From assembly GCA_934101275.1 (NCBI GenBank), contig CAKOQM010000001.1, forward strand, positions 5,371 to 69,370: a DNA stretch of 64,000 bases. The letters run 5' to 3'. The translations under genes were made by a program, and so were the position numbers. This DNA comes from an uncultured Bacilli bacterium. Lineage in GTDB: Bacteria; Bacillota_I; Bacilli_A; RF39; UBA660. Positions 2,657 through 47,394 of the stretch are shown piece after piece. The notes beneath the pieces are model-generated. The model saw only the letters and a program-made list of their open reading frames with translations, searched no databases and was not told the DNA's origin. The number at the start of each line of letters is the position of its first letter. Position 1 is the stretch's first letter.

Positions 2657-4420
2657 ATGTTAAAATTATTAAAGAATTTTGGTAAAAAAGAATGGTTTTT
2701 AATTTTTGCCTCATTTATTTTAATTTTAGGACAAGTATGGTTAGATTTAAAAAGCCCTGATTATATGTCACAAATAACGATTCTTGTTCAAACCGAAGGT
2801 AGCCAAATGAAAGATATTCTTTTAAATGGTGGGTATATGTTACTCTGTACGTTTGGTAGTCTTATTTTATCCATTATTGTTGGTTATTTTGCTTCTTATT
2901 TAGCAGCTACTTTTTCTAAGAAAACAAGAAGTTTACTTTTTAGAAAAATAGAAGACATGGGAATGCATGAAGTTAAACAATTTAAAACAAGTAGTTTAAT
3001 TACAAGAACAACAAATGATATTACGCAAATAGAAATGTTAATTGCGATGGGCTTGCAACTTTTAATTAAAGCACCTGTGACAGCTATCTGGGCAATTTCA
3101 AAAATTGTCAATAAATCTTTAGAATGGAGTGTTATTACTGCTGTTGCTGTTTTAGTACTACTTTTAACGATTGGTTTACTTGTTTTACTTGTTATGCCTA
3201 AATTCAAAGTGGTTCAAAAATTAACGGACCGTGTAAATAATTCTATTCGAGAAAATTTAACAGGTATTCGTGTCGTTAGAGCTTTTAATGCAGAAAAATA
3301 TCAAGAAGACAAATTTAATGATATTAACTCTGAATTAACAAAAACACAGTTATTCAATCAACGTACCATGTCTATTTTATCTCCTATGATGTATTTAGTT
3401 ATGTATATGTTAACTCTTTCTATTTATTTTGTGGGAGCAAGTCTTATTAAAAATGCGATGCTCGCAGATAAATTAACTTTATTTGGTGATATGGTTGTTT
3501 TCTCATCTTATGCTATGCAAATTATAATGGCCTTTCTAATGCTTGCTATGATCTTTATGATGTTACCTCGAGCTCAAGTTTCTGCGAAACGTATTAATGA
3601 GGTATTAGATACACCTTTATCAATTAATGATGGAAAGATCTTAACAAATAATCAAAAAGAAAAAGGTACTGTTGAATTTAAAAATGTATCCTTTAAATAC
3701 CCTGATGCGGAAGAGTATTTATTAAAAAATATTTCTTTTACAGCAAAACAAGGTGAAACCGTTGCTTTTATCGGTTCTACCGGTTCGGGTAAAAGTTCTC
3801 TTATTAATTTAGTTCCGCGTTTTTATGATGCGACAGACGGTGAAGTTTTAGTAGATGGTGTAAACGTAAAAGACTATAAACAAGAAACACTTCGTAACAA
3901 GATTGGTTATGTTCCTCAAAAAGCAGTTATTTTTAACGGTACAATAAATGAAAATGTTTCTTATGGTGAAAATGGTCAAGAAAAGATTACCGAAGAAAAA
4001 ATAAAAGAGGCTATCAAAGTTGCTCAAGCAGAAGAATTTGTTTCAAAAATGGATAATACTTATGAAACACATATTGCTCAAGGTGGAACCAATGTTTCCG
4101 GAGGTCAAAAACAAAGACTTTCTATAGCAAGAGCTATTGCAAGAGATCCTGAAATTTATATTTTTGATGATTCTTTTTCTGCACTCGATTATAAAACAGA
4201 CGCGATTTTAAGAAAAGAATTAAAAAATTATACGAAAGATGCGACGAGCTTAATTGTGGCTCAAAGAATTGGTACCATTATGAATGCAGATAAAATTCTT
4301 GTTTTAGAAAACGGTGAATGTGTTGGTATGGGTACTCATGAAGAATTATTAAAAACTTGCGAAGTCTATAAAGAAATCGCTTTATCACAATTGTCAAAGG
4401 AGGAGTTAGAAAATGCATAG
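2657..4420 (+). CDS. ABC transporter permease/ATP-binding protein (exporter half-transporter)
   Basis: 587 aa; N-terminal TM domain; Walker A 'GSTGSGKSS', ABC signature 'LSGGQKQRLSIARAI', Walker B 'IYIFDDSFSALD'. Confidence 0.9.
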   Translation: MLKLLKNFGKKEWFLIFASFILILGQVWLDLKSPDYMSQITILVQTEGSQMKDILLNGGYMLLCTFGSLILSIIVGYFASYLAATFSKKTRSLLFRKIEDMGMHEVKQFKTSSLITRTTNDITQIEMLIAMGLQLLIKAPVTAIWAISKIVNKSLEWSVITAVAVLVLLLTIGLLVLLVMPKFKVVQKLTDRVNNSIRENLTGIRVVRAFNAEKYQEDKFNDINSELTKTQLFNQRTMSILSPMMYLVMYMLTLSIYFVGASLIKNAMLADKLTLFGDMVVFSSYAMQIIMAFLMLAMIFMMLPRAQVSAKRINEVLDTPLSINDGKILTNNQKEKGTVEFKNVSFKYPDAEEYLLKNISFTAKQGETVAFIGSTGSGKSSLINLVPRFYDATDGEVLVDGVNVKDYKQETLRNKIGYVPQKAVIFNGTINENVSYGENGQEKITEEKIKEAIKVAQAEEFVSKMDNTYETHIAQGGTNVSGGQKQRLSIARAIARDPEIYIFDDSFSALDYKTDAILRKELKNYTKDATSLIVAQRIGTIMNADKILVLENGECVGMGTHEELLKTCEVYKEIALSQLSKEELENA

Positions 4421-6820: not shown

Positions 6821-7360
6821 ATGAAAGAAAATAAATATATGATCCAGCTATGTGAGGTAAACAAAGAAGTGCTTGCTATGGATAAAGAAAGAAAGGATAA
6901 TTTTTTAACGACTCAACTTGGTGTGTTTCAAGAAGATAATGTTTTTTTAAATCATGAAGCTATTATTGTTGTGCCATCTAAACATCCTGGCATGGTAAAA
7001 GAATATTTTACAGGTAGAGAAATTCCTCTAGTTTCTTTAGAAATCTATCGAAATTTAGATAAAAAAATAGCTCCAACGGATAAGCCTTACGCCTACTATG
7101 TAAATAGTAATTTAAAAAGTACACTTTTTGGCTTTCAAATTGTTTATCATGATATGAATTTTAAAGTAGAAAATGAACCTTTTAATCGCAAAAAAGTGAC
7201 GGATGAAGATCTTAAAAGCTTTATGAGTCAAAAAGGAATGTCTTTAGATGAATATAAGACTTATCTTTTAGATCGTTTTCGTATTTTGGAAGTCGAGCAT
7301 AAAAATAATTTAAATACGGCTTTAAAAAGAGTCAAAACTTTGTGGCAAACAAAAAAATGA
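6821..7360 (+). CDS. Hypothetical protein
   Basis: 179 aa ORF with RBS AAAGGAGAG upstream; no recognisable motif. Confidence 0.5.
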   Translation: MKENKYMIQLCEVNKEVLAMDKERKDNFLTTQLGVFQEDNVFLNHEAIIVVPSKHPGMVKEYFTGREIPLVSLEIYRNLDKKIAPTDKPYAYYVNSNLKSTLFGFQIVYHDMNFKVENEPFNRKKVTDEDLKSFMSQKGMSLDEYKTYLLDRFRILEVEHKNNLNTALKRVKTLWQTKK

Positions 7361-13897: not shown

Positions 13898-15505
13898 ATG
13901 GAAAAAAAGAGAAGAAATATTTTAATTACAATTGTTTTATTAATAGGTATCATCGCTGTTATAGGCGTCTCTTATGCTTTATGGGTATTGAACTTAACTC
14001 AAACTGGTCAAAATGATATTGTTTCATCATGTTTTAATATCACTTATGAAGATAAAGACAATATTAGTTTACAAAAGGCCTACCCAATCTTAGATGAAGA
14101 AGGAAAGAAATTAGTACCATATGAATTCACGATTACCAATTCTTGTGATTCCTATGCTTCTTTTAATGTTAATCTAGAAGTCTTAAATACCACGACTTTA
14201 ACAAACAACGATGCCGTTAAAGCTATGATATCATCAAAAACAAATGATACCGAGACAGAGATAACAACGAGTTTATTATCAAGTTATCAAACAACCACGA
14301 AAACCTTAGATAATGCTAAAATAGCATTTAATTTAACAACAGGCTATTTAAATGTAAAAGAATCTAAAACTTATACCTTAAGATTATGGTTAGACGAAAA
14401 TGTGGATATGAATACCGAAGGTGTTCAAAATGCTAAATTTAGTTCAAAAGTAGTTGTCACAACAAGCTATGCAGAAGAAATACCGAAATCTGCGGTAGAG
14501 ACAATAGTATCATTAGTAAGTGGAGCAGATATTAGTTCAACAGATGTTTATACAGTGCCAGATAAAGAAGGAGATAATTGTACATATACCTTCGTATATG
14601 ATGGAACGAGTGATAACAATTTAAGATATGTCGGATCAAATCCATGTAATTATATAAAAATAGATGATGAGTTATGGCGAATCGTTGGTGTGATGAATAG
14701 CATAGATGATGGCACAGGCAAGAAAGAAAGCCGTATAAAATTAATCCGGTCAGAGTCAATAGGAGGATATTCTTGGGATACATCCGATTCTAGCATAAAT
14801 GGAGGCTATGGTATAAATGAGTGGAGTCAAGCCGATTTAATGAAACTTTTAAATCCAGGGTATGAAAGTGAAAGCGTTGGAGGTTCTTTGTACTACAATG
14901 GTGGTTCAGGCACATGTTATAGTGGTCAAAGTAATACAACATCTTCTTGTGATTTTGCAAGTAGTGGCTTAAAAGAAAATTTAAAAGCATTAATAGGGGA
15001 TGCTATCTGGAATACCGGAAGTAACGATGGTGTCATATATGGGTATGATACAATAACTAGTAAATTCTATGAATTAGAAAGAAGTAATAATACAGGGAAG
15101 ATATGTTCATCAGGAAACTATTGTAATGATACCGTAGAAAGAACGACAACGTGGACAGGAAAAGTAGGATTAATATATCCTTCTGATTATGGATATGCGA
15201 CTAGTGGAAGAAGAGCTGCAAGTCAAAGCAGTTGCTCAAATGAAAAAATGTCTAATTGGATTGCTAGTTCTTATAGTGATTGCAGATCTAATGATTGGAT
15301 ATATAATTCATCTACTCAGTGGACTATTTTTCATTATGCGTTCTCTTCATCTGCTAGTGATGCGATGTATATTAGAGATACTGGAGACGTCAATACCAAC
15401 TATGTGGGTGTTAATAATGGTGTCCGTCCTTCTATTTATTTAAAACCTAATGTTTCTATTTTGTCTGGTGAAGGTACTTTGGAAGATCCCTATGTATTAG
15501 GATAA
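13898..15505 (+). CDS. Secreted/surface protein, paralogous family member A (N-terminal signal-anchor, Ser/Thr-rich, conserved C-terminal module)
   Basis: 535 aa; 'KKRRN' then TM then 'GVSYALW'; 'YTLRLWLDENV' block shared with the 51404 ORF; C-terminal 'GVRPSIYLKPNVSILSGEGTLEDPYVLG'; RBS AAAGGAG. Confidence 0.8.
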   Translation: MEKKRRNILITIVLLIGIIAVIGVSYALWVLNLTQTGQNDIVSSCFNITYEDKDNISLQKAYPILDEEGKKLVPYEFTITNSCDSYASFNVNLEVLNTTTLTNNDAVKAMISSKTNDTETEITTSLLSSYQTTTKTLDNAKIAFNLTTGYLNVKESKTYTLRLWLDENVDMNTEGVQNAKFSSKVVVTTSYAEEIPKSAVETIVSLVSGADISSTDVYTVPDKEGDNCTYTFVYDGTSDNNLRYVGSNPCNYIKIDDELWRIVGVMNSIDDGTGKKESRIKLIRSESIGGYSWDTSDSSINGGYGINEWSQADLMKLLNPGYESESVGGSLYYNGGSGTCYSGQSNTTSSCDFASSGLKENLKALIGDAIWNTGSNDGVIYGYDTITSKFYELERSNNTGKICSSGNYCNDTVERTTTWTGKVGLIYPSDYGYATSGRRAASQSSCSNEKMSNWIASSYSDCRSNDWIYNSSTQWTIFHYAFSSSASDAMYIRDTGDVNTNYVGVNNGVRPSIYLKPNVSILSGEGTLEDPYVLG

Positions 15506-27951: not shown

Positions 27952-28347
27952 ATGCTTAATAGAAGTGAAGCACGTAAAATTTGTATGATTTGTTTATATC
28001 AGATTGATATTTTAAGACAAAACAAACTTCCTATTGATATAAAGGAAATTATAAAAGAAAATTTAGAAGTAGAGAATAATTTTGTAGAAAATGTTGTCAC
28101 AGGTGTCACGGATCATTTAGAAGAATTAGATGATTTATGTAACACTTATTTAACCAATTGGAAAATTAATCGTTTAGATAAAACTGGAGCAAATATTTTG
28201 AGAATGGCTTTTTATGAATTAAAATATATGGATACACCTTCTATCGTTGTGATAAATGAAGCGGTAGAACTTGCTAAAACCTATACGGATAAAGAACTTG
28301 CCAACATGATAAATGCATCCTTAGACAAGTACATAAAGGAATTATAA
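27952..28347 (+). CDS. nusB: Transcription antitermination factor NusB
   Basis: 131 aa; 'RSEARKICMICLYQIDI' NusB N-terminal signature. Confidence 0.85.
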   Translation: MLNRSEARKICMICLYQIDILRQNKLPIDIKEIIKENLEVENNFVENVVTGVTDHLEELDDLCNTYLTNWKINRLDKTGANILRMAFYELKYMDTPSIVVINEAVELAKTYTDKELANMINASLDKYIKEL

Positions 28348-29357
28348 TGAAAGTCCAAAATGGTATTGTCACACTAAAAAGTATTGTTCCAGATTGGCGT
28401 AAAGCTATAAAAAATAATACCGTTATTCCTAACGATTTATGCGGCGGGTTTTATGATGGGTATTGGTTAAATGATATTGAGGGTGAAAATTATTTTTTCA
28501 AAATATCTAAAAAAAAAGGTTTTTCCAAAGAACTTTTTAATCAAATTTTAGGTGAAGAACTTGCCAGAATGGTTGGTATTGAAACCGTTCATTCTAAAGT
28601 AGTTGATGTTGGTAATCATTTTTATGGTTTATTATCTTTTAATTATATAAAATACAATGATGAAGTTTTCTCTGGTAAAAGCATAGTTTTACAATATTTA
28701 CATCATCTTTATAAGGATAATCTTTTAGAACTTTGGTTAGATAGTCGTTTAACAAAGGAAGAAAAAGCTGCTTTTGAAAACGAAAATTTAGATGAAATGA
28801 TGCAGGTATTAAATTCTCATAATCTTAATTGCAATTCTTTAAATTTTATTTGGGATGCCCTTTATTATCATTTTAAAGATTTTTCTCAAGGAAATTTAAT
28901 TACAGAAAAAATCATTAAGAATTTGACTCAACGTTACATTTTTTCCTTTTTTATCATGAACAAAGATTTTCATTTAAAAAATTGGGAAGTACTCGATATC
29001 CATCAAAATTACCGTTTATCTCCTTTATATGACATTGATCTTAGTTTTGATAAATCTTTTTCTGATTTAAACAAAAATAATTCTTTGCAATCTTATGAAA
29101 CGGATATTGCAAGTATTTATGAAGATTTCGAAAGATATTTTTATTCTTCAGCTGAAAGTTTTAGAGTAGAAGTCTATCATCAAAAAGAAGTGCTAAAACC
29201 TGAAAATGTCCAAGCTGCTTTAGATAACATTTTAAGTATTTATCAAGATCCTAAATTAAATTCATATGCCGATGCAATTATGACAAATTATGTTTCACAT
29301 TACGAGCAAATAAACGCTATAACAAAGGAACGTACATTATGGCAGACAAATACTTAA
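28347..29357 (+). CDS. HipA-like Ser/Thr kinase domain protein
   Basis: 336 aa; 'NKDFHLKNWEVL' (HipA D-x-H-x-KN catalytic motif) and 'LSPLYDIDLS' (HipA L-x-P-x-YD motif); start overlaps the nusB stop (ATAATGA) and its end overlaps the xseA start. Confidence 0.6.
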   Translation: MKVQNGIVTLKSIVPDWRKAIKNNTVIPNDLCGGFYDGYWLNDIEGENYFFKISKKKGFSKELFNQILGEELARMVGIETVHSKVVDVGNHFYGLLSFNYIKYNDEVFSGKSIVLQYLHHLYKDNLLELWLDSRLTKEEKAAFENENLDEMMQVLNSHNLNCNSLNFIWDALYYHFKDFSQGNLITEKIIKNLTQRYIFSFFIMNKDFHLKNWEVLDIHQNYRLSPLYDIDLSFDKSFSDLNKNNSLQSYETDIASIYEDFERYFYSSAESFRVEVYHQKEVLKPENVQAALDNILSIYQDPKLNSYADAIMTNYVSHYEQINAITKERTLWQTNT

Positions 29358-35448: not shown

Positions 35449-36243
35449 ATGAACAGATTAAACGAATTATTACAAGAATTAGGAATTTCAAAAGTGCGTT
35501 TAGCAAAATATTTAGGTGTTTCTAGACAAATGGTATATAATTACCTTGAACTTGACGATATTAATAAGTGGCCTAAAGAAAAGAAAATTTTGCTTTATCG
35601 TTTATTAGATATTAATGATGATAAAAATCAGTCTATTGATTCTATAAAAGTAACAACAGATTATCTTATGAGTGTAGAAAATAGATTAAATACAGGTGTT
35701 AAAGGCACTAACAATATTTCTAACTATTTTGACTTAAAGAATTTAAATAAGGAATCTCAAATTCTTATTACCAATATTTTAAATCTATTAAGAGAAAGGT
35801 TAGGGGATGATAAGAAAAAGCAAGAAAATTATTACGCTTTTTTATACCTTTATCATATGCTTCAATCTATGGACAATGTACCTGAAATAAAATATATATT
35901 TGGTTATATGTCTAAAGCAACAGGATTTACAAATCCTGAGGAATTCAAATTTAATGAAGATAGACAATTTATCTTTGAAGGAATATTGTACTCTGCCCTA
36001 ACGCTTTATAACAATGGGGGAGCCTCACGTAGTAAACTTGCCCTATCACATAAACGTTTTGTTCAAGAGATAGAAAAACAAAATGAAGAAAAATTAAGTC
36101 GTACGCAACAATTATTTACTTTAAGAACGCAAGCTTTAAAAGAACTTGGTTATAGTGAAATGAACGGTTCGAATGCTTCTGAAATTATTGAAAAAATTGC
36201 TGAAATTGAATCACGTGGTTCAATTATGAATGCTGATGAATAA
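35449..36243 (+). CDS. HTH-domain protein (N-terminal XRE-like HTH, uncharacterised C-terminus)
   Basis: 264 aa; 'LGISKVRLAKYLGVSRQMVYNYLE'. Confidence 0.6.
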   Translation: MNRLNELLQELGISKVRLAKYLGVSRQMVYNYLELDDINKWPKEKKILLYRLLDINDDKNQSIDSIKVTTDYLMSVENRLNTGVKGTNNISNYFDLKNLNKESQILITNILNLLRERLGDDKKKQENYYAFLYLYHMLQSMDNVPEIKYIFGYMSKATGFTNPEEFKFNEDRQFIFEGILYSALTLYNNGGASRSKLALSHKRFVQEIEKQNEEKLSRTQQLFTLRTQALKELGYSEMNGSNASEIIEKIAEIESRGSIMNADE

Positions 36244-36501
36244 TATCTATATTTTTATAGATATTTTTTTATCTTAAAACTTGCAACGAGATGATGGATT
36301 ATTCATCTTTTAAAATTTCGATGCAAATTAGAAGATATACAAATTTATAAATATTTAAATAAATATTAAAAATTATTATTAGAAAATCAAATATTTTGAC
36401 AAAGACTAGAATGCTAAAACCAAACAAATGAAATGATATATTATAGTAATATTTAAGGTAAAATAATTTTAATTTAAATATAAATTTGCGATAAAATTAA
36501 T

Positions 36502-36529
36502 GTATTTTTAAAAGTTGCATAATATATAT
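36502..36529 (+). repeat. dif-like XerCD-type site (attL of the prophage)
   Basis: AAGTTGCATAA-TATATA-TTATGTTAACC; spacer and right arm match the Firmicute dif consensus recalled from B. subtilis (ACTTCCTAGAA-TATATA-TTATGTAAACT) at 6/6 and 9/11. Confidence 0.55.
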
Positions 36530-36547
36530 TATGTTAACCGTGATATT

Positions 36548-36832
36548 TTAAATTAAATGCAGTTCGCTATACTGCTCTTGTTCTCTTTTTTTATAGATTT
36601 CTAAAAGTTCGATACGTTGTTTTATTAATTCTTTATAAAACATAAGTTCTTTCATAGAATAACACGACAACATTGCATAGCGTTTGTAATATTCATGATG
36701 ACCATAAACCTTACAAAAATTATAAGCACATACTAACAAATCATATCGATTTTTTAAATAAGTTAAGTTATTACAAGAACTAACTTCTTTTACAAACTTC
36801 TTTTCATTTTCAGATAAACCTTTATAAATCAT
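36548..36832 (-). CDS. Phage hypothetical protein (possibly the C-terminal part of a frameshifted rep)
   Basis: 94 aa; overlaps the rep 3' end by 11 nt in another frame. Confidence 0.4.
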   Translation of the reverse strand: MIYKGLSENEKKFVKEVSSCNNLTYLKNRYDLLVCAYNFCKVYGHHEYYKRYAMLSCYSMKELMFYKELIKQRIELLEIYKKREQEQYSELHLI

Positions 36833-37451
36833 AGTAAGACATTACCCTTTCATACGGCTCATTATGTTTTTGCAAAGCCCTTATAAATGTCACAGTCGAA
36901 CGTCTATAAATATCATACAAACCATTTAAAGCCACATACCTAACAAAATCTTGTTCATCTAAGTAACCAACAAAACTATCAATGTAATCCAACAATTCTA
37001 AAACCTTTTCACTCTCATCTTTACCGGAATTTTTAATATAATTTTTTAACTTTTGTTTGAGACTACCCTGTACATTTCTAACGTCATATTGATACTTATC
37101 AGGTTCATTATAATGAATCAAATAAAGTAAACTACGTTCTAAACTTCGACATTTTTGTATATAATTAATTTCAATACCTAAATCTTTAGCTAAAGCCGAA
37201 TTCCATACTGGATTATTAAAACGGATAACAACATGTGTATGAACTTTTTTTAGATTTCCATCTTCATCTAAATCACTATCATGATTAATCGAAGCATAAT
37301 CGTATGAACGTTTTACAATCTCAATTGCTTCTTTATGGCTTTCGTCCTCATTTGGATAAAGTAACAAGCAAAACTTTCTATCTCTAAACTTTTCAATAGC
37401 CAAACTATCACCCTCCCCTATTTTGACACAAATTTTTTTAAATTGACACAA
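36822..37451 (-). CDS. Rolling-circle replication initiator (HUH endonuclease)
   Basis: 209 aa; HUH-like 'KKVHTHVVIRFNNP'; Tyr-rich 'YLIHYNEPDKYQYDV'; sits next to the hairpin-rich IG region. Confidence 0.55.
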   Translation of the reverse strand: MCQFKKICVKIGEGDSLAIEKFRDRKFCLLLYPNEDESHKEAIEIVKRSYDYASINHDSDLDEDGNLKKVHTHVVIRFNNPVWNSALAKDLGIEINYIQKCRSLERSLLYLIHYNEPDKYQYDVRNVQGSLKQKLKNYIKNSGKDESEKVLELLDYIDSFVGYLDEQDFVRYVALNGLYDIYRRSTVTFIRALQKHNEPYERVMSYYDL

Positions 37452-37922
37452 TGGTATGTGTCAGAAAAAAGCCTTTATTTATCGTACTTAATAGACCTTT
37501 GACACATGACACACAGATTGCTATTAGTCGTAGTATAGCAATCTATAATTTATAATCTTTTATATTATAGTATTTATATTATTAAATTACTTATATATTA
37601 AATAATTTAATTTTTTAGCTGGTTAGGTGCGAAAGCACGATTATAACATCAAAAAGAGATAATTATAAAAACAGTTCATTAAAATTTTTTTGATATCGCT
37701 TTTTATAACAAGATAGATACTCTTTTTAATGTTAAAAAATTATACTTGCTTCCACTTCGTCAAGGCTATTGCAGTTATCAAGCAGAATATCAACGAAGCA
37801 GCAAAACCTTGACAAAGATACGAATTTCTTTCAAATAAGTTTTTATAAAATGGATTAAGTTCTATTAAATTAATAACCAGCTAAAAAAATCATAAAGATT
37901 GCTATTTTATTGTATATAAAAA
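37452..37922. repeat. Phage intergenic region with nested inverted repeats (candidate ssDNA origins or packaging signal)
   Basis: 14-bp inverted repeat ttttttagctggtt (37610-37624) and aaccagctaaaaaa (37873-37887); internal palindromes cttcgtcaagg...ccttgacaaag, ttgcag...ctgcaa-like; no coding potential. Confidence 0.5.
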
Positions 37923-38204
37923 CTAGCTTGCATTAATTGGCAATTTTCGAATAATCCACATTGAAAAATGATAAATATGATCAAAATTCGCGGCTAAAAT
38001 TACTAAAGGAACTAGCGTTTTAATCGTCGAAATACGAACAAAAAAACCTAATAAATCCAAATGATCAAAAATAAGATTAACAAAACCGTTAAGACTTGTT
38101 AAAATTGATACGTCTAATTGAGGCAAACTTGGCAACACGGCAAAAATCAAATCAACTAATAATTTAGCTAAATCTAATATAAAAGTTGTAACCATCACTA
38201 TCAA
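37923..38204 (-). CDS. Phage small hydrophobic protein (minor coat or pVI-like candidate)
   Basis: 93 aa, largely hydrophobic; overlaps the upstream gene (ATGA). Confidence 0.45.
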   Translation of the reverse strand: MIVMVTTFILDLAKLLVDLIFAVLPSLPQLDVSILTSLNGFVNLIFDHLDLLGFFVRISTIKTLVPLVILAANFDHIYHFSMWIIRKLPINAS

Positions 38205-39985
38205 ACCTTCTTTCGAATCCTGTATTCACGATGAGTTTTATGAGCCGTAACGGATTGATGAACTTGATTATTATCATCAATTGTATAATTTTGGCTAGCT
38301 GATAAAATATCCGTTTCGTACGTATCATTATTACCAAAAACACGATTATAAATATTAGAACAATAATTAAAAAAACTTAACATCAGCAAAGCATCTACAC
38401 ACATCAAATAAATATCATGCATATTTTTAATATTACTATCATTTAACAAACTAGCTAAATCAAAAGAGCCGGCTGAAATGATTGTTCCGTCAAAATTAGC
38501 AACTTTAAAATTAGGCCACGAAATCACATAAGAACCAGTATCCGTTAACTCGGTAAATCTTTCTAAAAATGTAATTATCCAAGTAAACGGATAACTTAAA
38601 AAGCCAAATTGATTAGTTAAACTCTCATTCACGCCTTTAAACCAGTACGAAAGGTCCTCTTTTGAAGGAACAAACAAAGACCTCAACATATTGCGAAAAT
38701 TAGACCAAAAATCCTCTGTACTTTTTTTAAAAGAATCAAAAAAGTTAGAAATTGTATCTGCAACAACCTCATTCGAAGACTTTGAAGTAAAATTATAAGT
38801 TGCCTTAGCAACATTACCATTTGAATCAACAATTCTAAAATATAAAGTATGTTTACCAAAATTAACATTACTAAACGTATAATGATTCGTTGGAATATCA
38901 ATCCAAGAACCATCGTCAAGTTTCAAATAGTATTTTTCAATTTTACCAGACATGGCATAACTATCACGTAAATCGACATAAATATTACTATCATTATAAG
39001 AAACAATATAACGTAAAACCGGTAACAAAGATGTTTTAACATCAACATTAAAAGTTGAAAGAGGTGTATTTGAACCGTCTTTATAAACGGCTTTTGCTGT
39101 ACCAGAATAAGAACCATTACTAAAACCGGTTAGCGTTACAGATTTCTCAGTCGTATAAACATAATCATAGCTACCCAATGTATAATAATATCCAACAACG
39201 TTATCCTCATCTGTAGCATTAAAATTTAATGTGATATCCGAACCACTAACCGAACTTGTTACATTTAAAAGACCTAAGTTATCACTTTCATAATTAATAT
39301 CTGATGAAAGATATAAATAATATATATTTTCAATATAATCCGTTGCAGAATCCGTTTGAGCATATGCTTTATTATCTAAATCAACAAACAAACTAAAGAA
39401 TTCAATATATTTTTTAGGAACACGACAACTAATCACAGCACTCGGAAAATCAGAATTGGAGCTTGTTGTTAAACAATCATATGGCTTATATGTTTCGTTA
39501 TTTGCATCACCAAACCTCGATTGCACACTAAAATGTAATCTATTAAAAATTTGATAGCTTTCAAAAATACCAGCTTGTATTTCATTATTTTTTGCTGAAG
39601 CATACATTCTAAAATATAAAGTATAAAAATTATTATCATTTGAAAGTATTCCTTGATTAAAAAAATTTTCATAAGAAAAACGATAAGAATTTGTTGTTAA
39701 ATAATAATCTGTTAACTCATTTGCTTTTACATAAACAGGAATACGATAACCTGTAAAATTTGGATACAAATTACTTATTTTTTTATCATTTAAATAATCA
39801 AGTTTCAAATAATCAAGGTTAGAATAATTAAAGTTTTGATAAGTATCAGAATTATTAAACCTATAATAAAGATATTTAGGTCTTATCTGAACAGGAGTTA
39901 AAGCATTAACATGAGTAATATCAAAAAATAAAGTTACGAAACTCAATGTTGCAAATATAAAAATCGTTTCTAATATTCTTTTCAT
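38201..39985 (-). CDS. Phage large secreted protein (candidate adsorption/pIII-like protein)
   Basis: 594 aa; N-terminal signal peptide 'IFIFATLSFVTLFFDITHVNA'; Asn/Ser/Tyr-rich; hydrophobic C-terminal region. Confidence 0.5.
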   Translation of the reverse strand: MKRILETIFIFATLSFVTLFFDITHVNALTPVQIRPKYLYYRFNNSDTYQNFNYSNLDYLKLDYLNDKKISNLYPNFTGYRIPVYVKANELTDYYLTTNSYRFSYENFFNQGILSNDNNFYTLYFRMYASAKNNEIQAGIFESYQIFNRLHFSVQSRFGDANNETYKPYDCLTTSSNSDFPSAVISCRVPKKYIEFFSLFVDLDNKAYAQTDSATDYIENIYYLYLSSDINYESDNLGLLNVTSSVSGSDITLNFNATDEDNVVGYYYTLGSYDYVYTTEKSVTLTGFSNGSYSGTAKAVYKDGSNTPLSTFNVDVKTSLLPVLRYIVSYNDSNIYVDLRDSYAMSGKIEKYYLKLDDGSWIDIPTNHYTFSNVNFGKHTLYFRIVDSNGNVAKATYNFTSKSSNEVVADTISNFFDSFKKSTEDFWSNFRNMLRSLFVPSKEDLSYWFKGVNESLTNQFGFLSYPFTWIITFLERFTELTDTGSYVISWPNFKVANFDGTIISAGSFDLASLLNDSNIKNMHDIYLMCVDALLMLSFFNYCSNIYNRVFGNNDTYETDILSASQNYTIDDNNQVHQSVTAHKTHREYRIRKKV

Positions 39986-39988
39986 ACT

Positions 39989-40555
39989 CTACCTCCTTCT
40001 TTTAAACTCAATAGCTAAAAATATTAATAAAATAGCTATAGTAATCATTAAAAAATATGGTTTTAATTCATCTAATGTTAAACCATTTGTTGAAGCGTTT
40101 GTATCGTTTGATGAATTATCATTAACTTTTTTATCGTGATAATTTGTTACGTATGAACCATTAAAACTCAAATTAGACCAACCAGACGTGCTTTTATAAG
40201 TAGAATAAATACCTAATGAATCTTGCTCAAAAATATAACACTGCGCGGTCAAATGACCGTTAAATGAAGAACGATTAACACTAAAAGAAGAACCAGAACC
40301 AGTTTTATGATTGGTAGATGTAATAGCATCATCATTTAAAAAACATAAACGTAATTGTTTATCAGATTCAAAAACAGTACGACCTATAACATAATAATCT
40401 AAAAATGAAGAATACGAAAACCAAAGTTCCCTTTTAGCAAACGTCTCAACATAATCGGGTACATCGTAAAACTTAAAAGTAGATGCACTAACAGAAATTG
40501 TTTGAAGTGATAAAGATATAATCATAATGGATAAAAAATAAATAATCTTACGCAT
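39989..40555 (-). CDS. Phage secreted protein with C-terminal membrane anchor
   Basis: Signal peptide 'MRKIIYFLSIMIISLSLQTISVSA'; C-terminal TM plus 'KRRR'; start set at the ATG at 40555 (ORF-track TTG 40597). Confidence 0.45.
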   Translation of the reverse strand: MRKIIYFLSIMIISLSLQTISVSASTFKFYDVPDYVETFAKRELWFSYSSFLDYYVIGRTVFESDKQLRLCFLNDDAITSTNHKTGSGSSFSVNRSSFNGHLTAQCYIFEQDSLGIYSTYKSTSGWSNLSFNGSYVTNYHDKKVNDNSSNDTNASTNGLTLDELKPYFLMITIAILLIFLAIEFKRRR

Positions 40556-40695
40556 ATTATCACAATACTTTCTTTTTATTACCACCGATAAAGTCAAGCA
40601 TTAAATTAATTAATCTGTTAGCAATTTCAAAAACTAAATAAATTGGAAAAGCTACAACAAGTAAAGAAGCAATGCAATTAACAATAACTTGGTAA

Positions 40696-41421
40696 TCAAC
40701 GTTTACTATCATAAATATCAACACCTTTACTTTCAATTTTTAAATTTTTGTTTTCAATAACTTTATAAGTATCATACCTTTTAAACGACAAAGGATTTTT
40801 AAAGTATCTAAATACCCTTTTGACGGTACCTTTTAAATTCGTTCCAGTACTCTCTTCACCGTCAATACTATTTCGGTCGATAAGACTATTTTTTTGTAAA
40901 AAACCAAATAGCTTTTTTTCACAATAAATTACAACATCAAATTGCTCACGTAACTGTTTGGCCATCCGGCCAAACACTTGACTCGTAGCAACAATATGAA
41001 TACGTTGTTTACGTTGTTGAGCTATTTGAGTCATAACATCCATATCAATATTTTTGCTACCTAATGAATTAAAATAAAGTTGAATCTCATCGATTAAAAA
41101 GATAACTCCTTGTTTACCATTTTTATACTTTGTTAAATCCTTTGCTTCTTGAAATAAAAATACTCGTTCATTATCAAAAGGATAATCTGTTAGTTCTAAA
41201 TTCGTAACAATTTTACAATTAGGATACAACTTTAACAATTTATATACATAATTTACAGCTGATAAAGTTTTACCAGAACCTTGAGGCCCACAAAAAATAC
41301 AAAGGCCATCAGGTCGAAAGTAATCAGGATTTTCTCTATAAAAATCACGTTGATACTTAAGTTGTTTAAAAATATTTAAAGGCCCTAGCTTTTCTTTTAA
41401 AGCATAAGCACTAACCGCCAT
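40696..41421 (-). CDS. Zot-like (pI-type) filamentous-phage assembly ATPase
   Basis: 241 aa; Walker A 'GPQGSGKTLSAV', Walker B 'IFLIDEIQLYF'; RBS AGGTGA. Confidence 0.7.
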   Translation of the reverse strand: MAVSAYALKEKLGPLNIFKQLKYQRDFYRENPDYFRPDGLCIFCGPQGSGKTLSAVNYVYKLLKLYPNCKIVTNLELTDYPFDNERVFLFQEAKDLTKYKNGKQGVIFLIDEIQLYFNSLGSKNIDMDVMTQIAQQRKQRIHIVATSQVFGRMAKQLREQFDVVIYCEKKLFGFLQKNSLIDRNSIDGEESTGTNLKGTVKRVFRYFKNPLSFKRYDTYKVIENKNLKIESKGVDIYDSKR

Positions 41422-41429
41422 AAAATCAC

Positions 41430-41531
41430 CTACTTATTTTTATGAAAAATTTTATTCCAAGCCCAATTAAAAAACTTGTATATTAAAAATACTAAAAAGA
41501 AACTTAACAGGCTACTCATAACATCATTCAT
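41430..41531 (-). CDS. Phage small membrane protein (33 aa; pVII/pIX-like minor coat candidate)
   Basis: MNDVMSSLLSFFLVFLIYKFFNWAWNKIFHKNK; ATGAATGA overlap with the upstream ORF; not in the ORF track. Confidence 0.35.
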   Translation of the reverse strand: MNDVMSSLLSFFLVFLIYKFFNWAWNKIFHKNK

Positions 41532-41727
41532 CTTTTTGCTCCTCTCTTTTCTCATCAATTTTTTTACTTAAATTTTTAAGCAATGCTTTTCTTTCTGGTT
41601 TACTTAATTTATTAAATTTATGTAGCAAAACATATAAATACTCTAATTGGTCTAAAGTTAAATTATCTAAATTATTCATAATCACTAAATTTTTAGAAAA
41701 AAAGGAATGATAAAACACGCATATCAC
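41524..41727 (-). CDS. Phage hypothetical protein
   Basis: 67 aa; charged C-terminus. Confidence 0.35.
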   Translation of the reverse strand: MICVFYHSFFSKNLVIMNNLDNLTLDQLEYLYVLLHKFNKLSKPERKALLKNLSKKIDEKREEQKDE

Positions 41728-41745
41728 TCCTAATTTTCCAACGTA

Positions 41746-41961
41746 TTATAAACGAATACGTCCAGCCGCAACAGCGCTTGTGAAAGCATTAACAGCTTTA
41801 CGAACTCCTAACCAAAGTAAGAAGAAGCCCATACCTACACCAACAACAGAAGCTAAAACATTTAAAACTTGAGCTGTAGTAATAGAACTTGTTAGCGCTG
41901 TAATGAAAGCAGTAAAATCAATCGTTGTAGGTTGAGTTTCTTGAGATGCTTCCATAGACAA
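41746..41961 (-). CDS. Major coat protein candidate (pVIII-like)
   Basis: 71 aa; acidic N-terminus, single TM 'VVGVGMGFFLLWLGV', basic C-terminus 'RKAVNAF...GRIRL'; RBS GGAGG. Confidence 0.55.
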   Translation of the reverse strand: MSMEASQETQPTTIDFTAFITALTSSITTAQVLNVLASVVGVGMGFFLLWLGVRKAVNAFTSAVAAGRIRL

Positions 41962-42138
41962 ACCTCCTTTTCATTCTTTTTGTCCTTTTTTATAAAAAAG
42001 GAGCGTCTTACTAAAAGCGGTCAAACAGTAAGACAACAGTTTATAAGCTGCTGGTTTTTAATTTTAAGTATATTAGAATAAAGAGTTTATAAGATAAAAA
42101 TATATATAAATTTTTACTTAAAATCACCGCAAATTTTT

Positions 42139-42408
42139 TTAATATCGTTTATTTTTATTTTTTTCAACATAAATATAAACAACTTTACGACCAAAATGTT
42201 TTTTGAACCACAAACGAATACTTCGAAAAAAATATTTAATCTTAGTTTTTAAATTTCTAGAGGGTTTAAGATTGTAATAGCCTATATATTCTTCACCAAA
42301 ACCATTATAGCTACCAATTTTCAAAGGTATTGAATCTTTATAAGGTTCATAACCAAATCTACATCTATAACAATCATGATTGTAACTATAATAAATTAAT
42401 AATCGCAT
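42139..42408 (-). CDS. Phage hypothetical protein
   Basis: 89 aa, basic, Tyr-rich. Confidence 0.35.
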   Translation of the reverse strand: MRLLIYYSYNHDCYRCRFGYEPYKDSIPLKIGSYNGFGEEYIGYYNLKPSRNLKTKIKYFFRSIRLWFKKHFGRKVVYIYVEKNKNKRY

Positions 42409-42682
42409 TGTTATACTTAATACCAGTAATTTTAGTCTTTGGCTTCATTGGATTCATAGGATTTTCAACGGTTTCAACCATTAAAGTACATTCCTTGTTT
42501 ACCATTTTTTCATCAAGCTTATCAAAAGCAGTAATCGGCAAAAATGCATAAAGTACAATGTATCCTTTTACCTTTTCAGATTTACAAGGCTTATCGGTTG
42601 CAATATAATCGATTCTTGTATAAGGTTCTTTACCTTTCGGACAACATTTTGTTATCGTTGTCAAATTAACTTTTAATTCCAT
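42386..42682 (-). CDS. Phage hypothetical protein (ssDNA-binding gV-like candidate by position and size)
   Basis: 98 aa; assignment is by context only. Confidence 0.3.
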   Translation of the reverse strand: MELKVNLTTITKCCPKGKEPYTRIDYIATDKPCKSEKVKGYIVLYAFLPITAFDKLDEKMVNKECTLMVETVENPMNPMKPKTKITGIKYNNAIINLL

Positions 42683-42738
42683 TTTTTACGCTCCTTTTCT
42701 ATCTTTTGTTTTATGGCACAAAAGCTAAAGCCAAGAAA

Positions 42739-42954
42739 TTACCAGAAACCTCTATTAGGCGAATAAACAACATTATTTACATAAACATTCTCTAAATGAA
42801 GTTGATTCAAAAGAATATTGAAAAATTTTAAAGCTTGTTCTTTTGTTTTAAAATGAAAAGTTGCGAATGATAAATTACCGTCTAAAAAATGAATTTTAAT
42901 AAACCTATCATCTAGCTCCAAAATGTGTAAATAATTATCATTTATAAAATACAT
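42739..42954 (-). CDS. Phage hypothetical protein
   Basis: 71 aa. Confidence 0.35.
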   Translation of the reverse strand: MYFINDNYLHILELDDRFIKIHFLDGNLSFATFHFKTKEQALKFFNILLNQLHLENVYVNNVVYSPNRGFW

Positions 42955-43442
42955 ACGTCTTTTTTTACAAGATTAATTGACTTATTTAAAACATCACGAC
43001 ACAGGTTTACAGCTTCGGTTTTATCACAAAAAGAAAATTCAATTTCATCTAAACCAGAAGAATCATTAAAGCCTAATTTGATAATATACAAGCCTAAAGC
43101 GTCTTTATAAGCTTTAATAAATTTCACTTTTAAATAATCAATAGTAAATTCCATATCCTCAACTACTTCCTCAACTTCCTCATCAGTCATACATAAAAAC
43201 TTTTTAATAATATATCTTACATCCGAATATGATTTACAAGTACCGTCATATAAATAAATGTAGCCCTCTTCACCAGTTAAAATATCAAAAGCTTTTGCCA
43301 TTTCGGAATCGGAATCACAAAAGTAAACACAATAAGCATTTATAAAGTTTTCATATGTTAAGTCAATGTCGTTTTCTTTCATATAATCGTTAACTTTTCT
43401 CATATTCATCATTTCATAAACAATATTAATCATCTTTATCAC
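42942..43442 (-). CDS. Phage hypothetical protein (acidic)
   Basis: 166 aa; first gene of the minus-strand module, divergent from the XRE repressor. Confidence 0.45.
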   Translation of the reverse strand: MIKMINIVYEMMNMRKVNDYMKENDIDLTYENFINAYCVYFCDSDSEMAKAFDILTGEEGYIYLYDGTCKSYSDVRYIIKKFLCMTDEEVEEVVEDMEFTIDYLKVKFIKAYKDALGLYIIKLGFNDSSGLDEIEFSFCDKTEAVNLCRDVLNKSINLVKKDVCIL

Positions 43443-43547
43443 TCCTTTTATATACGTTTAACGCATTTATATATCAATTATATACGTGTGACGTTTACTT
43501 GTCAATACGCAATAAGTATATTTTGTAAAATAACTTTGGTGAGGAAA

Positions 43548-43781
43548 ATGAATATAAATAGATTGAAAGAAATAAGAGAAGATAAAGATTATAAACAAAG
43601 TGAGGTTGCAAAAATTCTAAATGTAACACAAGCACAATATAGCAGATATGAAACAGGTGAAAACACAATTCCACTTGACAAAATATATAAACTAGCAGAA
43701 TTTTACAAAACATCAATAGATTATCTAGTTTATAGAACAGATGAAAGAAATCCTTATCCAAAAAGTATAATGAAAAATTGA
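43548..43781 (+). CDS. XRE-family HTH repressor (phage cI/Cro-like)
   Basis: 'MNINRLKEIREDKDYKQSEVAKILNVTQAQYSRYETGENTIPLDKIYKLAEFYKTSIDYLV'; ATG at 43548 behind RBS GGTGAGGAAA. Confidence 0.75.
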   Translation: MNINRLKEIREDKDYKQSEVAKILNVTQAQYSRYETGENTIPLDKIYKLAEFYKTSIDYLVYRTDERNPYPKSIMKN

Positions 43782-43792
43782 AAGAGGAAAAA

Positions 43793-43945
43793 ATGAACAA
43801 TCAAAGTTTAGAAGAAATTAATCAAAGTTTAAAAACAATAAAAGATATTATTGTTGAAGAATATAAAAGAAAAAAAAGTATCGAAATGTTAAAAATTGCT
43901 ATAGCCCTTCTTATATTTGCTATTATCTACATTAGATACTCATAA
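43793..43945 (+). CDS. Small membrane protein (50 aa)
   Basis: MNNQSLEEINQSLKTIKDIIVEEYKRKKSIEMLKIAIALLIFAIIYIRYS; RBS AAGAGGAAAA; hairpin aagattgc/gcaatctt just downstream (43949-43977). Confidence 0.45.
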   Translation: MNNQSLEEINQSLKTIKDIIVEEYKRKKSIEMLKIAIALLIFAIIYIRYS

Positions 43946-44022
43946 AAAAAGATTGCCTAAAACCAATTTGCAATCTTAAAATAAAGGACTTATTTTTCAA
44001 GCATCAATAGGAGGTGACAACA

Positions 44023-44115
44023 TTGAAAAATACAATTAATTCAAAAAAACACAAAATTTTAACAATATGTATAATTCTATTCTTTGTTTTATTAGCAATT
44101 TCAACATTAAAATAA
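44023..44115 (+). CDS. Small hydrophobic peptide (30 aa), putative
   Basis: TTG start behind a strong RBS AGGAGGTGA; MKNTINSKKHKILTICIILFFVLLAISTLK. Confidence 0.3.
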   Translation: MKNTINSKKHKILTICIILFFVLLAISTLK

Positions 44116-44189
44116 AACATCGATAATTAATTAAGCCCTTTACGATACCTAAATTACATTTTTATAATAAATTAAGTATCGCAAAAGGT

Positions 44190-44366
44190 TTATTTTTTTA
44201 ACCTTTTGTACAACTTACAACCCATATTACTAATCATTCTTAATAAAATCAATATTGCAACAAGAAGAATAAATCCAATTATATATTCAAAATCATTAGT
44301 AATAAAATAAAAAATAAATGAATCAATAAAAATAATTAAGCATAACAGAATTTCATAATTATTCAT
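44190..44366 (-). CDS. Small membrane protein (58 aa), putative
   Basis: MNNYEILLCLIIFIDSFIFYFITNDFEYIIGFILLVAILILLRMISNMGCKLYKRLKK; RBS AAGGGG; hairpin aaaaggtt/aaccttttt at 44183-44207 overlaps the stop. Confidence 0.35.
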   Translation of the reverse strand: MNNYEILLCLIIFIDSFIFYFITNDFEYIIGFILLVAILILLRMISNMGCKLYKRLKK

Positions 44367-44393
44367 AAAGTAACCCCTTTACACATTTTGATA

Positions 44394-44421
44394 TTTTCAT
44401 AACGTAAATATTATGTTAACC
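44394..44421 (+). repeat. dif-like site, second copy (attR of the prophage)
   Basis: TTTTCATAACG-TAAATA-TTATGTTAACC; shares the 17-mer a[t/a]atattatgttaaccg with 36514-36530. Confidence 0.55.
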
Positions 44422-44459
44422 GCAATAGTTTAAATTATTATTTATAAGATACTCTTTGT

Positions 44460-45209
44460 TTATAATAAACGATTTAAAAATAAAATTAGAATTCCGACAA
44501 AACTACCTAATAATAAAAACGTCTCTTGATGATACGATAAAGCTTTGGGAAGTAATTCTTCAATAGCTAACGTTATCATAATACCACCAACAAAAAGCAA
44601 AATTATACCAATTAATTCTGGTGAAAGAAATGGTTTTAAAAACAAGCAGGCAATAATCGCTCCAACTGGTTCGGCTATACCAGATAAAAAAGTCATTCCT
44701 ATAGCTTTTCTTTTGTTTTGTGTGGCATAATAAATAGGAACCGCTATACTAATTCCTTCGGGAATATTATGAAGCATAATAGCTATACTGATATGTAATC
44801 CGAGAGAAAAATTTTGATAACTGCTCAAAAAGGTTAAGATGCCTTCTGGCAAGTTATGGAGCATAAGAGTGAGCATACTTAAAATACCTAATCGATATAA
44901 AGAACTATCCCCTCTTCCCTTCTCTATTTTTTGGTTTATAAAACGAATCGTAAAGATAGAAAAAAGAAAAATAAATAAAGACAACAAGATACCTTTAACT
45001 AATTTAAATTTTGTTAGAATAATATAACTAGCTTCAGGTATCAATTCTAAAATCGAAATACCAATCATTATCGTTAAAGAAAGGCTTAAACAGAAAGTAA
45101 TAAATTTATTAATACTTTTATGTGACCATTTCAAAAAAATAACGAAAGATCCCAAAACAGTTGATAGACCAGCCATGGTAGATAAAATAAAAGGAATAAA
45201 AAAAGACAT
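44460..45209 (-). CDS. zupT: ZIP-family divalent metal transporter (ZupT-like)
   Basis: 249 aa, 8 TM; 'HNLPEGI' and 'HNIPEGISIAVPI' signatures. Confidence 0.8.
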   Translation of the reverse strand: MSFFIPFILSTMAGLSTVLGSFVIFLKWSHKSINKFITFCLSLSLTIMIGISILELIPEASYIILTKFKLVKGILLSLFIFLFSIFTIRFINQKIEKGRGDSSLYRLGILSMLTLMLHNLPEGILTFLSSYQNFSLGLHISIAIMLHNIPEGISIAVPIYYATQNKRKAIGMTFLSGIAEPVGAIIACLFLKPFLSPELIGIILLFVGGIMITLAIEELLPKALSYHQETFLLLGSFVGILILFLNRLL

Positions 45210-46391: not shown

Positions 46392-46487
46392 ATGAAAAAA
46401 AATCAAAAAAATAATTCTAGAAAACAAGAACGTAAAAATCAAAATCAAAAACGTGAATCTAGAAATCAAGAAAAATCTTGTGATTAA
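46392..46487 (+). CDS. Small highly basic protein (31 aa), putative
   Basis: MKKNQKNNSRKQERKNQNQKRESRNQEKSCD; strong RBS GGGAGGT 7 nt upstream; followed by a perfect hairpin terminator; not in the ORF track. Confidence 0.4.
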   Translation: MKKNQKNNSRKQERKNQNQKRESRNQEKSCD

Positions 46488-46493: not shown

Positions 46494-46527
46494 AAGGAAG
46501 AATGATGTCGTTTCTTCCTTATTTTTT
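46494..46527. terminator. Bidirectional rho-independent terminator (small basic ORF / xerD)
   Basis: aaggaagaa-N9-ttcttcctt then ATTTTTT. Confidence 0.65.
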
Positions 46528-47394
46528 GGCATGAGGATGAAATTCGTTATATTCATCCTTGTTTTTTTGATTTGTCACATGTGTATAAATTTCTGTTGTT
46601 GAGATATTGCTATGGCCAAGAAATGTTTGAATCGTTCGTAGGCTTGCGCCATTTAAAAGTAAATGTGTTGCAAAAGAATGACGAAGCATATGAGGATTTA
46701 CCTTTCTATCAATTGTTTGTAAGGATATTTCATTTAAAATTTTATTCATTCCTTGTCTTGTTATTGGTGTTCCTCGATTGTTTAAAAAAAGTTCATCATA
46801 TACTTTACCTTTTTTGACAAGTTGACTTCGATATACATTTAAATACAATTTTAAATACTTTAGGGAAGTTTCATTTAGATAAACCACTCTTTCTTTAGAA
46901 CCCTTTCCTTCTACGACTACCCATTCCTGTTCAAAATCAATATTTTTAAGTTTCAGTGAAACTAATTCACTAATTCTTAAACCTGTTGCATAAAGGATTT
47001 CTAACATTGCCTTAGTACGATAATCAAAAATCGTTTTTAAAGGAAAAGAAAGTAATTTATCAACTTCTTCATAGGAAAGATAATTAGGTAAATGCTCCCC
47101 TATTTTAGGAAAGAAAATGGTAGAACAAGGGTTAATTGCCTCTTCTTTTCCTTCGTTTAAAAAATCATAAAACCCATTTAATGTAGATAGATAATGAGAT
47201 CGTGTTCTTTCGTTTTGTCCACGGCTTTGTAAAAAGGAAAGAAGATCGTCTTTTGTTAAATCTAAAGCGGACTTTCTATCTTTAAAAAAAATTTTTAATT
47301 GATTTAAATCATTTTCATAAGAAAGTAATGTATTTTCACTTAACTTTTTTTCAAATTTTATATATTCTTTATATCTTGTTATTTCTTGTTTCAT
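46519..47394 (-). CDS. xerD: Tyrosine recombinase, XerD/XerC-like
   Basis: 291 aa; C-terminal catalytic 'LRHSFATHLLLNGASLRTIQTFLGHSNISTTEIYTHV'; about 2.1 kb from the dif-like site at 44394. Confidence 0.75.
   Translation of the reverse strand: MKQEITRYKEYIKFEKKLSENTLLSYENDLNQLKIFFKDRKSALDLTKDDLLSFLQSRGQNERTRSHYLSTLNGFYDFLNEGKEEAINPCSTIFFPKIGEHLPNYLSYEEVDKLLSFPLKTIFDYRTKAMLEILYATGLRISELVSLKLKNIDFEQEWVVVEGKGSKERVVYLNETSLKYLKLYLNVYRSQLVKKGKVYDELFLNNRGTPITRQGMNKILNEISLQTIDRKVNPHMLRHSFATHLLLNGASLRTIQTFLGHSNISTTEIYTHVTNQKNKDEYNEFHPHAKK

Follow-up and report, generated by a model that had tools for sequence, protein, structure and literature searches.

The window, by which we mean the whole 64-kb stretch of DNA analysed here, is 100% identical to a human-gut metagenome scaffold. 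Its chromosomal genes include those for MutS, NusB, exonuclease VII, ProRS, SpoIVB and MnmA on the left side, and those for ZupT, an XerC/XerD-family recombinase, RarA and the SpoVA proteins on the right. A HipA_C-domain kinase gene (28347-29357), toxin-like in character, is found between the nusB and exonuclease VII genes, while an Rfam search of the window returned no RNA family. The two sides are interrupted by 7,882 bp of inserted DNA (36540-44421, minus strand), delimited by its absence from the empty sites and by the spacing of the junctions described below; the exact boundary is arbitrary within the 15-18 nt that the junctions share. On its left flank the host carries a gene for a 264-aa protein (35449-36243, plus strand), and on its right flank the gene of the zinc transporter ZupT (44460-45209, minus strand; NCBIfam ZupT, E=4.5e-63).

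Approximately 17 ORFs are packed into these 7.9 kb, all on the minus strand except for the gene of an HTH_3 repressor and one small ORF, which lie on the plus strand. The terminal phage gene (36548-36832, minus strand) encodes a 94-aa protein with no Pfam or PHROG match, and its 3' end overlaps the outer flank of the phage attachment site. Next to it, at 36822-37451 on the minus strand, is the gene for a HUH rolling-circle replication initiator of 209 aa (Rep; Pfam Rep_OBD PF01719, E=3.6e-17). Then comes a hairpin-rich non-coding region (37452-37922, minus strand) with inverted repeats such as AGATTGCTAT/ATAGCAATCT, a candidate replication origin or packaging signal. The largest product, of 594 aa (38201-39985, minus strand), belongs to no Pfam or PHROG family, has hydrophobic N- and C-terminal segments and, by its position, is a candidate pIII-like adsorption or minor coat protein; all relatives have a large ORF in the same place. 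An ORF of 188-202 aa with hydrophobic termini is also present in the prophage. The inovirus hallmark, a pI/Zot-type morphogenesis ATPase of 241 aa, is encoded at 40696-41421 on the minus strand (Zot PF05707, E=1.5e-9; PHROG 197, E=5.5e-13). A 71-aa protein without a family match (41746-41961, minus strand) might be the major coat protein, judging from its size and its pattern of a hydrophobic helix followed by a basic C-terminus. Finally, the HTH_3 (Cro/CI-type) repressor of 77 aa (43548-43781, plus strand; Pfam HTH_3, E=4e-16; PHROG 8, E=7e-24) is divergent from the structural genes; this gene call was taken from an identical contig.

Taken together, the Zot/pI and Rep proteins, the coat-like protein and the small, mostly one-stranded genome identify the element as an inovirus-like, presumably filamentous prophage (Tubulavirales). 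Nucleotide matches among GenBank phages were confined to short stretches of "Inovirus sp." and "bajarodino virus" records, none of which exceeded 4% coverage. Among the ORFs of at least 55 aa in 36540-44421, Pfam and PHROG scans gave no match to a recombinase or transposase, in agreement with an earlier reading of the sequence alone (hereafter the sequence-only reading), which had seen no phage integrase in the element. The HUH Rep is the sole DNA-processing enzyme found, and a novel recombinase beyond the reach of profile recognition is possible.

The element is bordered by two dif-like sites of 28 bp. Site 1, or attL (36512-36539, plus strand), is composed of the XerC-type arm AAGTTGCATAA, the central region TATATA and the XerD-type arm TTATGTTAACC. 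Site 2, or attR (44394-44421, plus strand), reads TTTTCATAACG, TAAATA and again TTATGTTAACC. Both had been noticed in the sequence-only reading: its TATATA spacer at site 1 is indeed there, and so are the position 44394-44421, the TAAATA spacer and the identical right arm of site 2, whereas the interval 36502-36529 that it gave for site 1 is placed 10 nt too far to the left. The 17-mer a[t/a]atattatgttaaccg that it described as shared occurs at both sites, though the full repeat is longer, extending over 33 nt (36523-36555 versus 44405-44437) with an identity of 29/33 and a spacing of 7,882 bp. Exactly two copies of the right arm TTATGTTAACC exist in the 64 kb, one at 36529-36539 and the other at 44411-44421, and both are on the plus strand. 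Against E. coli dif, site 1 scores 20/28 and site 2 scores 16/28, and the left arm AAGTTGCATAA retains the inner GCATAA of the E. coli site. Against B. subtilis dif (ACTTCCTAGAATATATATTATGTAAACT, the sequence being checked in PMC3025954), the respective scores are 20/28 and 19/28, and the 9/11 match claimed previously for the right arm is borne out by that sequence. The inner arms of dif are nearly palindromic. Repeat statistics are weak in such an AT-rich window, where other two-copy repeats of like length are present, and the right-arm 11-mer showed no enrichment in the window with up to one mismatch allowed. We therefore accept the site pair as real because of the empty sites, and not because of repeat statistics.

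These empty sites were located through contigs encoding the identical 264-aa left-flank protein, a search that yielded both lysogens and phage-free contigs. In the phage-free contigs L008, L009, L010, L012 and L014, a single uninterrupted dif, identical to site 1, occupies the position of the prophage, which is missing precisely between the two junction sites. The complete ZupT gene directly follows dif in L010, and in L008, L009 and L014 the gene after dif is cut by the contig end. A search of genome contigs with the exact dif 26-mer gave a match in one related MAG only. The left arms of both sites had been taken for degenerate arms of hybrid sites in the sequence-only reading; this holds for site 2, but site 1 is the very site that phage-free relatives carry as their single one.

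The surroundings of site 1 behave like a replication terminus. On the left of dif the GC skew is +0.138, compared with -0.058 on its right, and cumulative G-C peaks at 36559, 20 bp away from the site; when the phage is removed in silico, this peak turns into a plateau that extends 4.4 kb further to the right. Of the large ORFs left of dif, 22/24 are on the plus strand, while the majority of those right of dif are on the minus strand. Such a pattern identifies the window as holding the replication terminus of a gut Bacilli chromosome and site 1 as the chromosomal dif. The sequence-only reading had named a dif located elsewhere, with the repeats absent from empty sites, as the outcome that would speak against it; instead, the empty sites carry dif at this very position, and the terminus is here as well. 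It is also worth mentioning that the DNA just left of the XerC-type arm is hypervariable among similar hosts (L001 1909-2026 versus window 36386-36511), with the 28-bp dif itself being identical, and that the same hypervariability is seen between L022 and L023 (minus strand, ~14147-14170).

Reconstructed from the two junctions, the phage attachment site attP reads TATTTTCATAA-CG-TAAATA-TTATGTTAACC-GTGATATTTTAAATTA, the junction sequence being CATAACGTAAATATTATGTTAACCGTGATATTTTAAATTAAATGC. As reconstructed, it can be described as right-armed: its XerD arm is perfect, its centre agrees with that of the host at 5/6 positions, and its XerC-like arm is shifted by 2 bp, giving an 8-bp spacing. Read with this 8-bp spacer, the left arm of attR (TATTTTCATAA, 44392-44402) matches the host XerC-type arm at 8/11 positions; the left arm and central region of attR are phage-derived. 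Searches for the circular attP junction (left arm and centre joined to the right flank) gave only chance matches in IMG/VR, JGI metagenome contigs and GenBank phages, and a search for phage-only contigs with the two terminal phage proteins gave only lysogen junctions. A CTX-type hairpin attP, built of two inverted dif-like sites, was considered as well and discarded, as the phage has no inverted copy of the arm.

On the outer side of the shared arm, the identity between the junctions continues for a further 16-20 bp, in unrelated phage/host pairs alike: 36540-36555 versus 44422-44437 in the window, ~14118 and ~8141 on the minus strand of L022, and 4306-4325 versus 10248-10267 in L052. The stretch corresponds to the 3' end of the terminal phage gene, and Xer chemistry neither requires nor explains it. 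It might be a phage-derived scar left beside a rebuilt dif by decayed prophages, or might possibly have arisen by flank conversion, through branch migration and subsequent non-Xer resolution.

Comparison of lysogens indicates that the site has been used repeatedly. Identity to the window is 98.8-99.1% for the host and 93.2% for the phage in L006/L007, whereas in L001 it is 90.5% for the left host flank and 99.3% for the phage. Since host and phage identities are discordant in this way, at least three independent insertions must have occurred at the same dif. Polymorphisms at the junctions then allow the crossover to be mapped. The outer flank at attL (36540-36555, plus strand), the 16-bp GTGATATTTTAAATTA, includes the last codons of the 94-aa gene together with its stop codon. 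It agrees at 13-16/16 positions with the host sequence to the right of dif, and lysogens of three different host backgrounds all show it unchanged at attL; because of this invariance, and because it holds the stop codon of the terminal phage gene, we regard it as phage DNA. By contrast, the host flank right of the original dif (44422-44437, plus strand; GCAATAGTTTAAATTA in the window strain) is polymorphic, beginning with GTGAC in L008, L009, L012 and L014, GTGAT in L010 and, at the attR of the window's lineage, GCAATAG. The attL of L006/L007 combines a TATATA centre with a GTGAT flank, and their attR a TAAATA centre with a GTGAC flank. As this GTGAC is that of the closest phage-free relatives, the attR flank is host DNA. 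No phage-free chromosome of the window's own lineage was seen with the GCAATAG flank, whose host origin we infer from the L006/L007 lineage.

In every lysogen with a visible junction, the TATATA of the host is kept at attL and the TAAATA of the phage is found at attR (for L001, attL is the only junction available). The L006/L007 polymorphisms accordingly place the exchange within ATA-TTATGTTAACC-GTGA, that is, in an interval (36526-36543) reaching from position 3 of the central region to +4 beyond the right arm. The analogy of E. coli dif puts the expected XerD cleavage position inside this interval and that of XerC outside it. At the 8-bp spacer, moreover, the nucleotides on the XerC side differ between phage and host and the three beside the XerD side are identical, a combination that fits an exchange on the XerD side. 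A XerC-only exchange resolved by replication, in the style of CTXφ and VGJφ, was rejected, since it would place TAAATA at attL, where TATATA is seen. As for how such an exchange would be completed, a XerD-only reaction and a full two-step reaction with segregation of the heteroduplex centre would both give the same outcome in 2-3 events, so that the junctions cannot tell them apart.

The length of the shared stretch raises the question of whether homology alone might have been sufficient. RecA-dependent or microhomology-mediated recombination over the ~33 bp would draw on a repeat that is unusually long (33 nt, 29/33) and reaches beyond the Xer site, and the phage-type GTGAT flank of L010 would fit an excision with its crossover at the far end of the homology. 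On the other hand, RecA would have to work on a very short homology, 33 bp interrupted by mismatches; an identical architecture, with either arm, recurs in many phage/host pairs with unrelated flanks, and in three independent events the crossover falls within the same 15-18 nt beside the central region. We therefore give this explanation hardly any credence. A crossover within TTTAAATTA, 8-16 bp outside dif, had likewise been suggested by L010, which matches attL up to that point; we rejected it because attR of L006/L007 has the variant of its relatives and because the attL flank, being invariant, is phage DNA. An exchange on the XerD side of the central region is the reading we retain.

The distribution of related phages provides a wider frame for this locus. 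A total of 2,645 pI homologues were found at E<=1e-10, mostly in gut metagenomes; a single-protein scan of IMG/VR with pI returned nothing, and relatives were sought there with an alignment-based scan instead. Among the relatives without an integrase, which reside at dif in other hosts, some are right-armed (L022-24, L031/32, L064), having a full dif on one side and, on the other, a hybrid that shares the central region and the XerD arm; in L022 and L031, the stop codon of Rep falls within the arm. Others are left-armed (L033/34, L035, L036, L052-55, L126), their sites sharing the XerC arm and the centre, for example ACTTCCTATAA TTGATA. Most integrase-less prophages on long contigs adjoin the same MnmA / Xer-RarA synteny as in the window. 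A further group (L025-27, L028) carries a tyrosine integrase beside Rep and is inserted at unrelated loci, not at dif; in L025 (14113-15069) and L028 (6294-7340), where pI is 64-67% identical, the phages are inserted beside CysRS or SRP54 genes. As an integrase is present in some close relatives and absent from others, the integration module has been swapped within one inovirus family.

This distribution also bears on the question of whether a phage function might catalyse the integration, be it the HUH Rep or a recombinase that went unrecognised among the 94-, 163- and 594-aa ORFs. HUH proteins are capable of site-specific integration elsewhere, as in the cases of AAV Rep and IS91/IS200-type elements; most ORFs of the phage are without a family match, and in several relatives the 3' end of the Rep gene overlaps the site. 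Yet the phages at dif use two unrelated Rep families: that of the window, L033 and L036 is Rep_OBD, that of L022, L031 and L035 is REP_ORF2-G2P, and all of these phages have a dif arm and centre in common with the host. The use of two families speaks against Rep being the integrase. Those relatives that do possess a bona fide integrase stay away from dif, repeats of the HUH nick-site type are not seen at the junctions, and what is shared between phage and host is one Xer half-site plus the centre, with a crossover interval that includes the expected XerD cleavage position. Catalysis by a phage protein is, in our opinion, very improbable, and host Xer recombinases are the better candidates.

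Several details of the relatives deserve a comment of their own. The free circular bajarodino virus 42 from rodent faeces (L041, PQ006141.1) contains AAATTGCATAA TATATA at 1819-1835, ending at the Rep stop codon; it agrees with the left half of the window host's dif at 16/17 positions and probably represents a left-armed attP, one that the record PQ006141 leaves unannotated. In the other three of the four free circular rodent inoviruses examined, the best scores of a dif mimic against the consensus were within the range of shuffled sequences. The 7,170-bp phage-only contig L042 has a 22-bp terminal direct repeat (1-30 and the 7086-7170 region), being thus probably circular, and possesses two direct copies of a XerD-type arm, TTATGTTAACT, 65 bp apart beside the Rep end, which may stem from a doubled attP, from a tandem junction or from the assembly. 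In L052, a third, degenerate dif-like site (ACTTCCTATTA CTAATA TTATGTATAAT, 1439-1466) lies 2.9 kb outside the left prophage junction, and is possibly a remnant of another element, i.e., a trace of a tandem IMEX array. Type II-A CRISPR-Cas9 loci with cas9, cas1, cas2 and csn2 abut the dif-integrated prophages of L031 (97-7760) and L036 (1-3166); the L031 array has 26 repeats, and the 49 spacers of the L031/L032 arrays gave no match to the phage sequences of this analysis.

The host recombinase closest at hand is a 291-aa tyrosine recombinase of the XerC/XerD family, encoded at 46519-47394 on the minus strand, with RarA as the next gene. The sequence-only reading had pointed to this xerD-like gene 2.1 kb to the right; the gene is indeed there, 2,098 bp away from site 2. 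Its product reaches 296.9 bits with NCBIfam XerD (TIGR02225; cut-off 329.6) and 283.3 with XerC (cut-off 335), passing only the generic subfamily model NF001399. Among PDB structures it matches E. coli XerD best (1a0p, E=1.2e-50), and the R..K..HxxR..H..Y motifs are readable. No paralogue or partner is encoded within the 64-kb window. A 21-bp tandem repeat (3.3 copies, 67% matches) is present just downstream of the gene at 46400-46469. In every host lineage examined, the Xer gene and RarA lie within ~2-3 kb of dif (Xer genes at L010 4255-5130, L022 4282-5187, L031 16010-16936 and L033 15600-16517), a linkage reminiscent of single-recombinase Xer systems.

One might accordingly imagine that this gene encodes a single recombinase acting on both arms, as XerS does at difSL and XerH at difH, and not one member of a XerC and XerD pair. 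The only Xer gene of the window is ambiguous between XerC and XerD, its distance of 2-3 kb from dif in all lineages examined is like that of single-recombinase systems (PMC5357621), and the inner arms of dif are almost palindromic. Nevertheless, with its 28 bp, its 6-bp centre and outer arms that differ from each other, the site has the classical dif layout, as does the B. subtilis dif served by CodV and RipX, and most Firmicutes outside the streptococci and lactococci have two Xer proteins (PMC5357621, PMC3025954). We consider a single recombinase unlikely.

Overall, the locus holds a temperate inovirus of 7,882 bp that resides at dif, has no recombinase of its own and very probably integrates through the Xer machinery of its host. 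Sequence features that define an integrative mobile element exploiting Xer (IMEX) are all found here: the recombinase is absent, the insertion is at dif, the reconstructed attP is dif-like, and one dif and one hybrid stand in direct repeat. In our scenario, the double-stranded replicative form would carry the dif mimic attP, and host Xer recombinases, one of them encoded 2.1 kb away, would synapse it with dif. The strand exchange would then take place at the XerD side of the centre, leaving a Holliday junction that might be resolved by replication or, alternatively, by another exchange. The product has an intact dif on the left (attL, 36512-36539) and a hybrid on the right (attR, 44394-44421); a functional dif would be regenerated at attL, so that dimer resolution would be preserved. 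The Xer-mediated, IMEX-type integration suggested by the sequence-only reading is supported by the empty sites, the terminus, the lack of a recombinase and the relatives at dif; the dependence on Xer we infer from the Xer-family gene nearby, from the crossover interval and from the integrase-bearing relatives, which do not use dif.

In Proteobacteria, XerD is controlled by FtsK, and phages circumvent this control with ssDNA hairpins or XafT. In B. subtilis, neither SftA nor SpoIIIE is a direct activator of CodV/RipX (PMC5357621), and a XerD-side exchange might therefore need no phage activator. It is tempting to go further, although we hold the following picture to be doubtful as a whole. Gut Bacilli might harbour a large undescribed family of Gram-positive IMEX, the right-armed members of which would use XerD only and be resolved by replication, mirroring the XerC-only CTX/VGJ phages, which would be possible since Firmicute Xer needs no FtsK activation; repeated integration and decay would leave scars that rewrite 16-20 bp beside dif. 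If true, such phage scars would explain why the flank identity is extended and why the DNA around dif is hypervariable.

IMEX biology is known almost entirely from Proteobacteria (Vibrio, Neisseria, Enterobacter). The mechanism class to which we assign our phage is already known, and we found no report, in the searchable literature, of an IMEX in Firmicutes or in any Gram-positive host. A close resemblance is to TLCφ-type elements, which also have no integrase, carry an attP mimicking one dif arm plus the centre, target the chromosomal dif and rebuild dif at one junction. TLCφ, for which strand exchange on the XerD side is on record, integrates with XerD acting first (PMC5357621). It differs in sharing, like the gonococcal genetic island (GGI), the XerC arm, whereas the window phage shares the XerD arm. 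Furthermore, the window host belongs to Gram-positive, spore-forming Bacilli, the identity here runs 16 bp past the arm, no XafT-like gene was recognised, and the proteins are unrelated to those of vibriophages except for pI/Zot. Half-site attPs, in the form of left- and right-armed 17-mers, are known in Vibrio inoviruses and DJR phages (PMC12715192). CTXφ and VGJφ are likewise filamentous phages that integrate at dif through host XerCD. However, CTXφ employs a folded ssDNA hairpin of two inverted sites and a XerC-only exchange, and the window phage is without an inverted second site; VGJφ employs a XerC-only exchange on double-stranded DNA, and the junction centres in the window rule out a crossover on the XerC side. 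GGI and EludIMEX-1 are flanked by dif and a degenerate dif-like site and have no recombinase of their own (PMC5357621), but they are non-phage islands of 29-57 kb from Proteobacteria in which the degenerate arm is the XerD arm.

Among phages of Gram-positive gut bacteria, the inovirus prophages of Enterocloster and Hungatella (PMC10061712) are similar in their size of 5-8.5 kb, in possessing a pI homologue and in their flanking direct repeats, and metagenomic inoviruses from rodents and pigs have ~70-79% nucleotide identity to the window phage in pI/Zot, the repressor and one unannotated ORF. The papers on Gram-positive gut inoviruses differ from our analysis in that the repeats were not identified as dif and Xer was not discussed; dif and Xer are absent both from the large inovirus survey and from the Enterocloster inovirus paper (PMC10061712). 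A dif-directed, Xer-dependent route, if it operates as we propose, accounts for the integration of many integrase-less gut inovirus prophages. It also supplies callers of metagenomic prophages with an exact boundary rule, namely a repeated dif half-site beside the terminus synteny of MnmA / Xer-RarA.

The locus appears to display the same parasitic strategy in a Gram-positive gut bacterium, with natural empty sites and several independent insertions, and its polymorphisms already place the crossover on the XerD side. With B. subtilis dif, the substrate of CodV-RipX, the window dif has in common its 28 bp, the TATATA centre, 9/11 positions of the right arm and the location at the terminus, and it differs in the left arm, which agrees at 5/11 positions only; elsewhere among the hosts of this phage family, ACTTCCTATAA as left arm agrees with that of B. 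subtilis dif at 10/11. The window offers a concrete attP/dif pair for studying the hijack of CodV/RipX-type recombinases.
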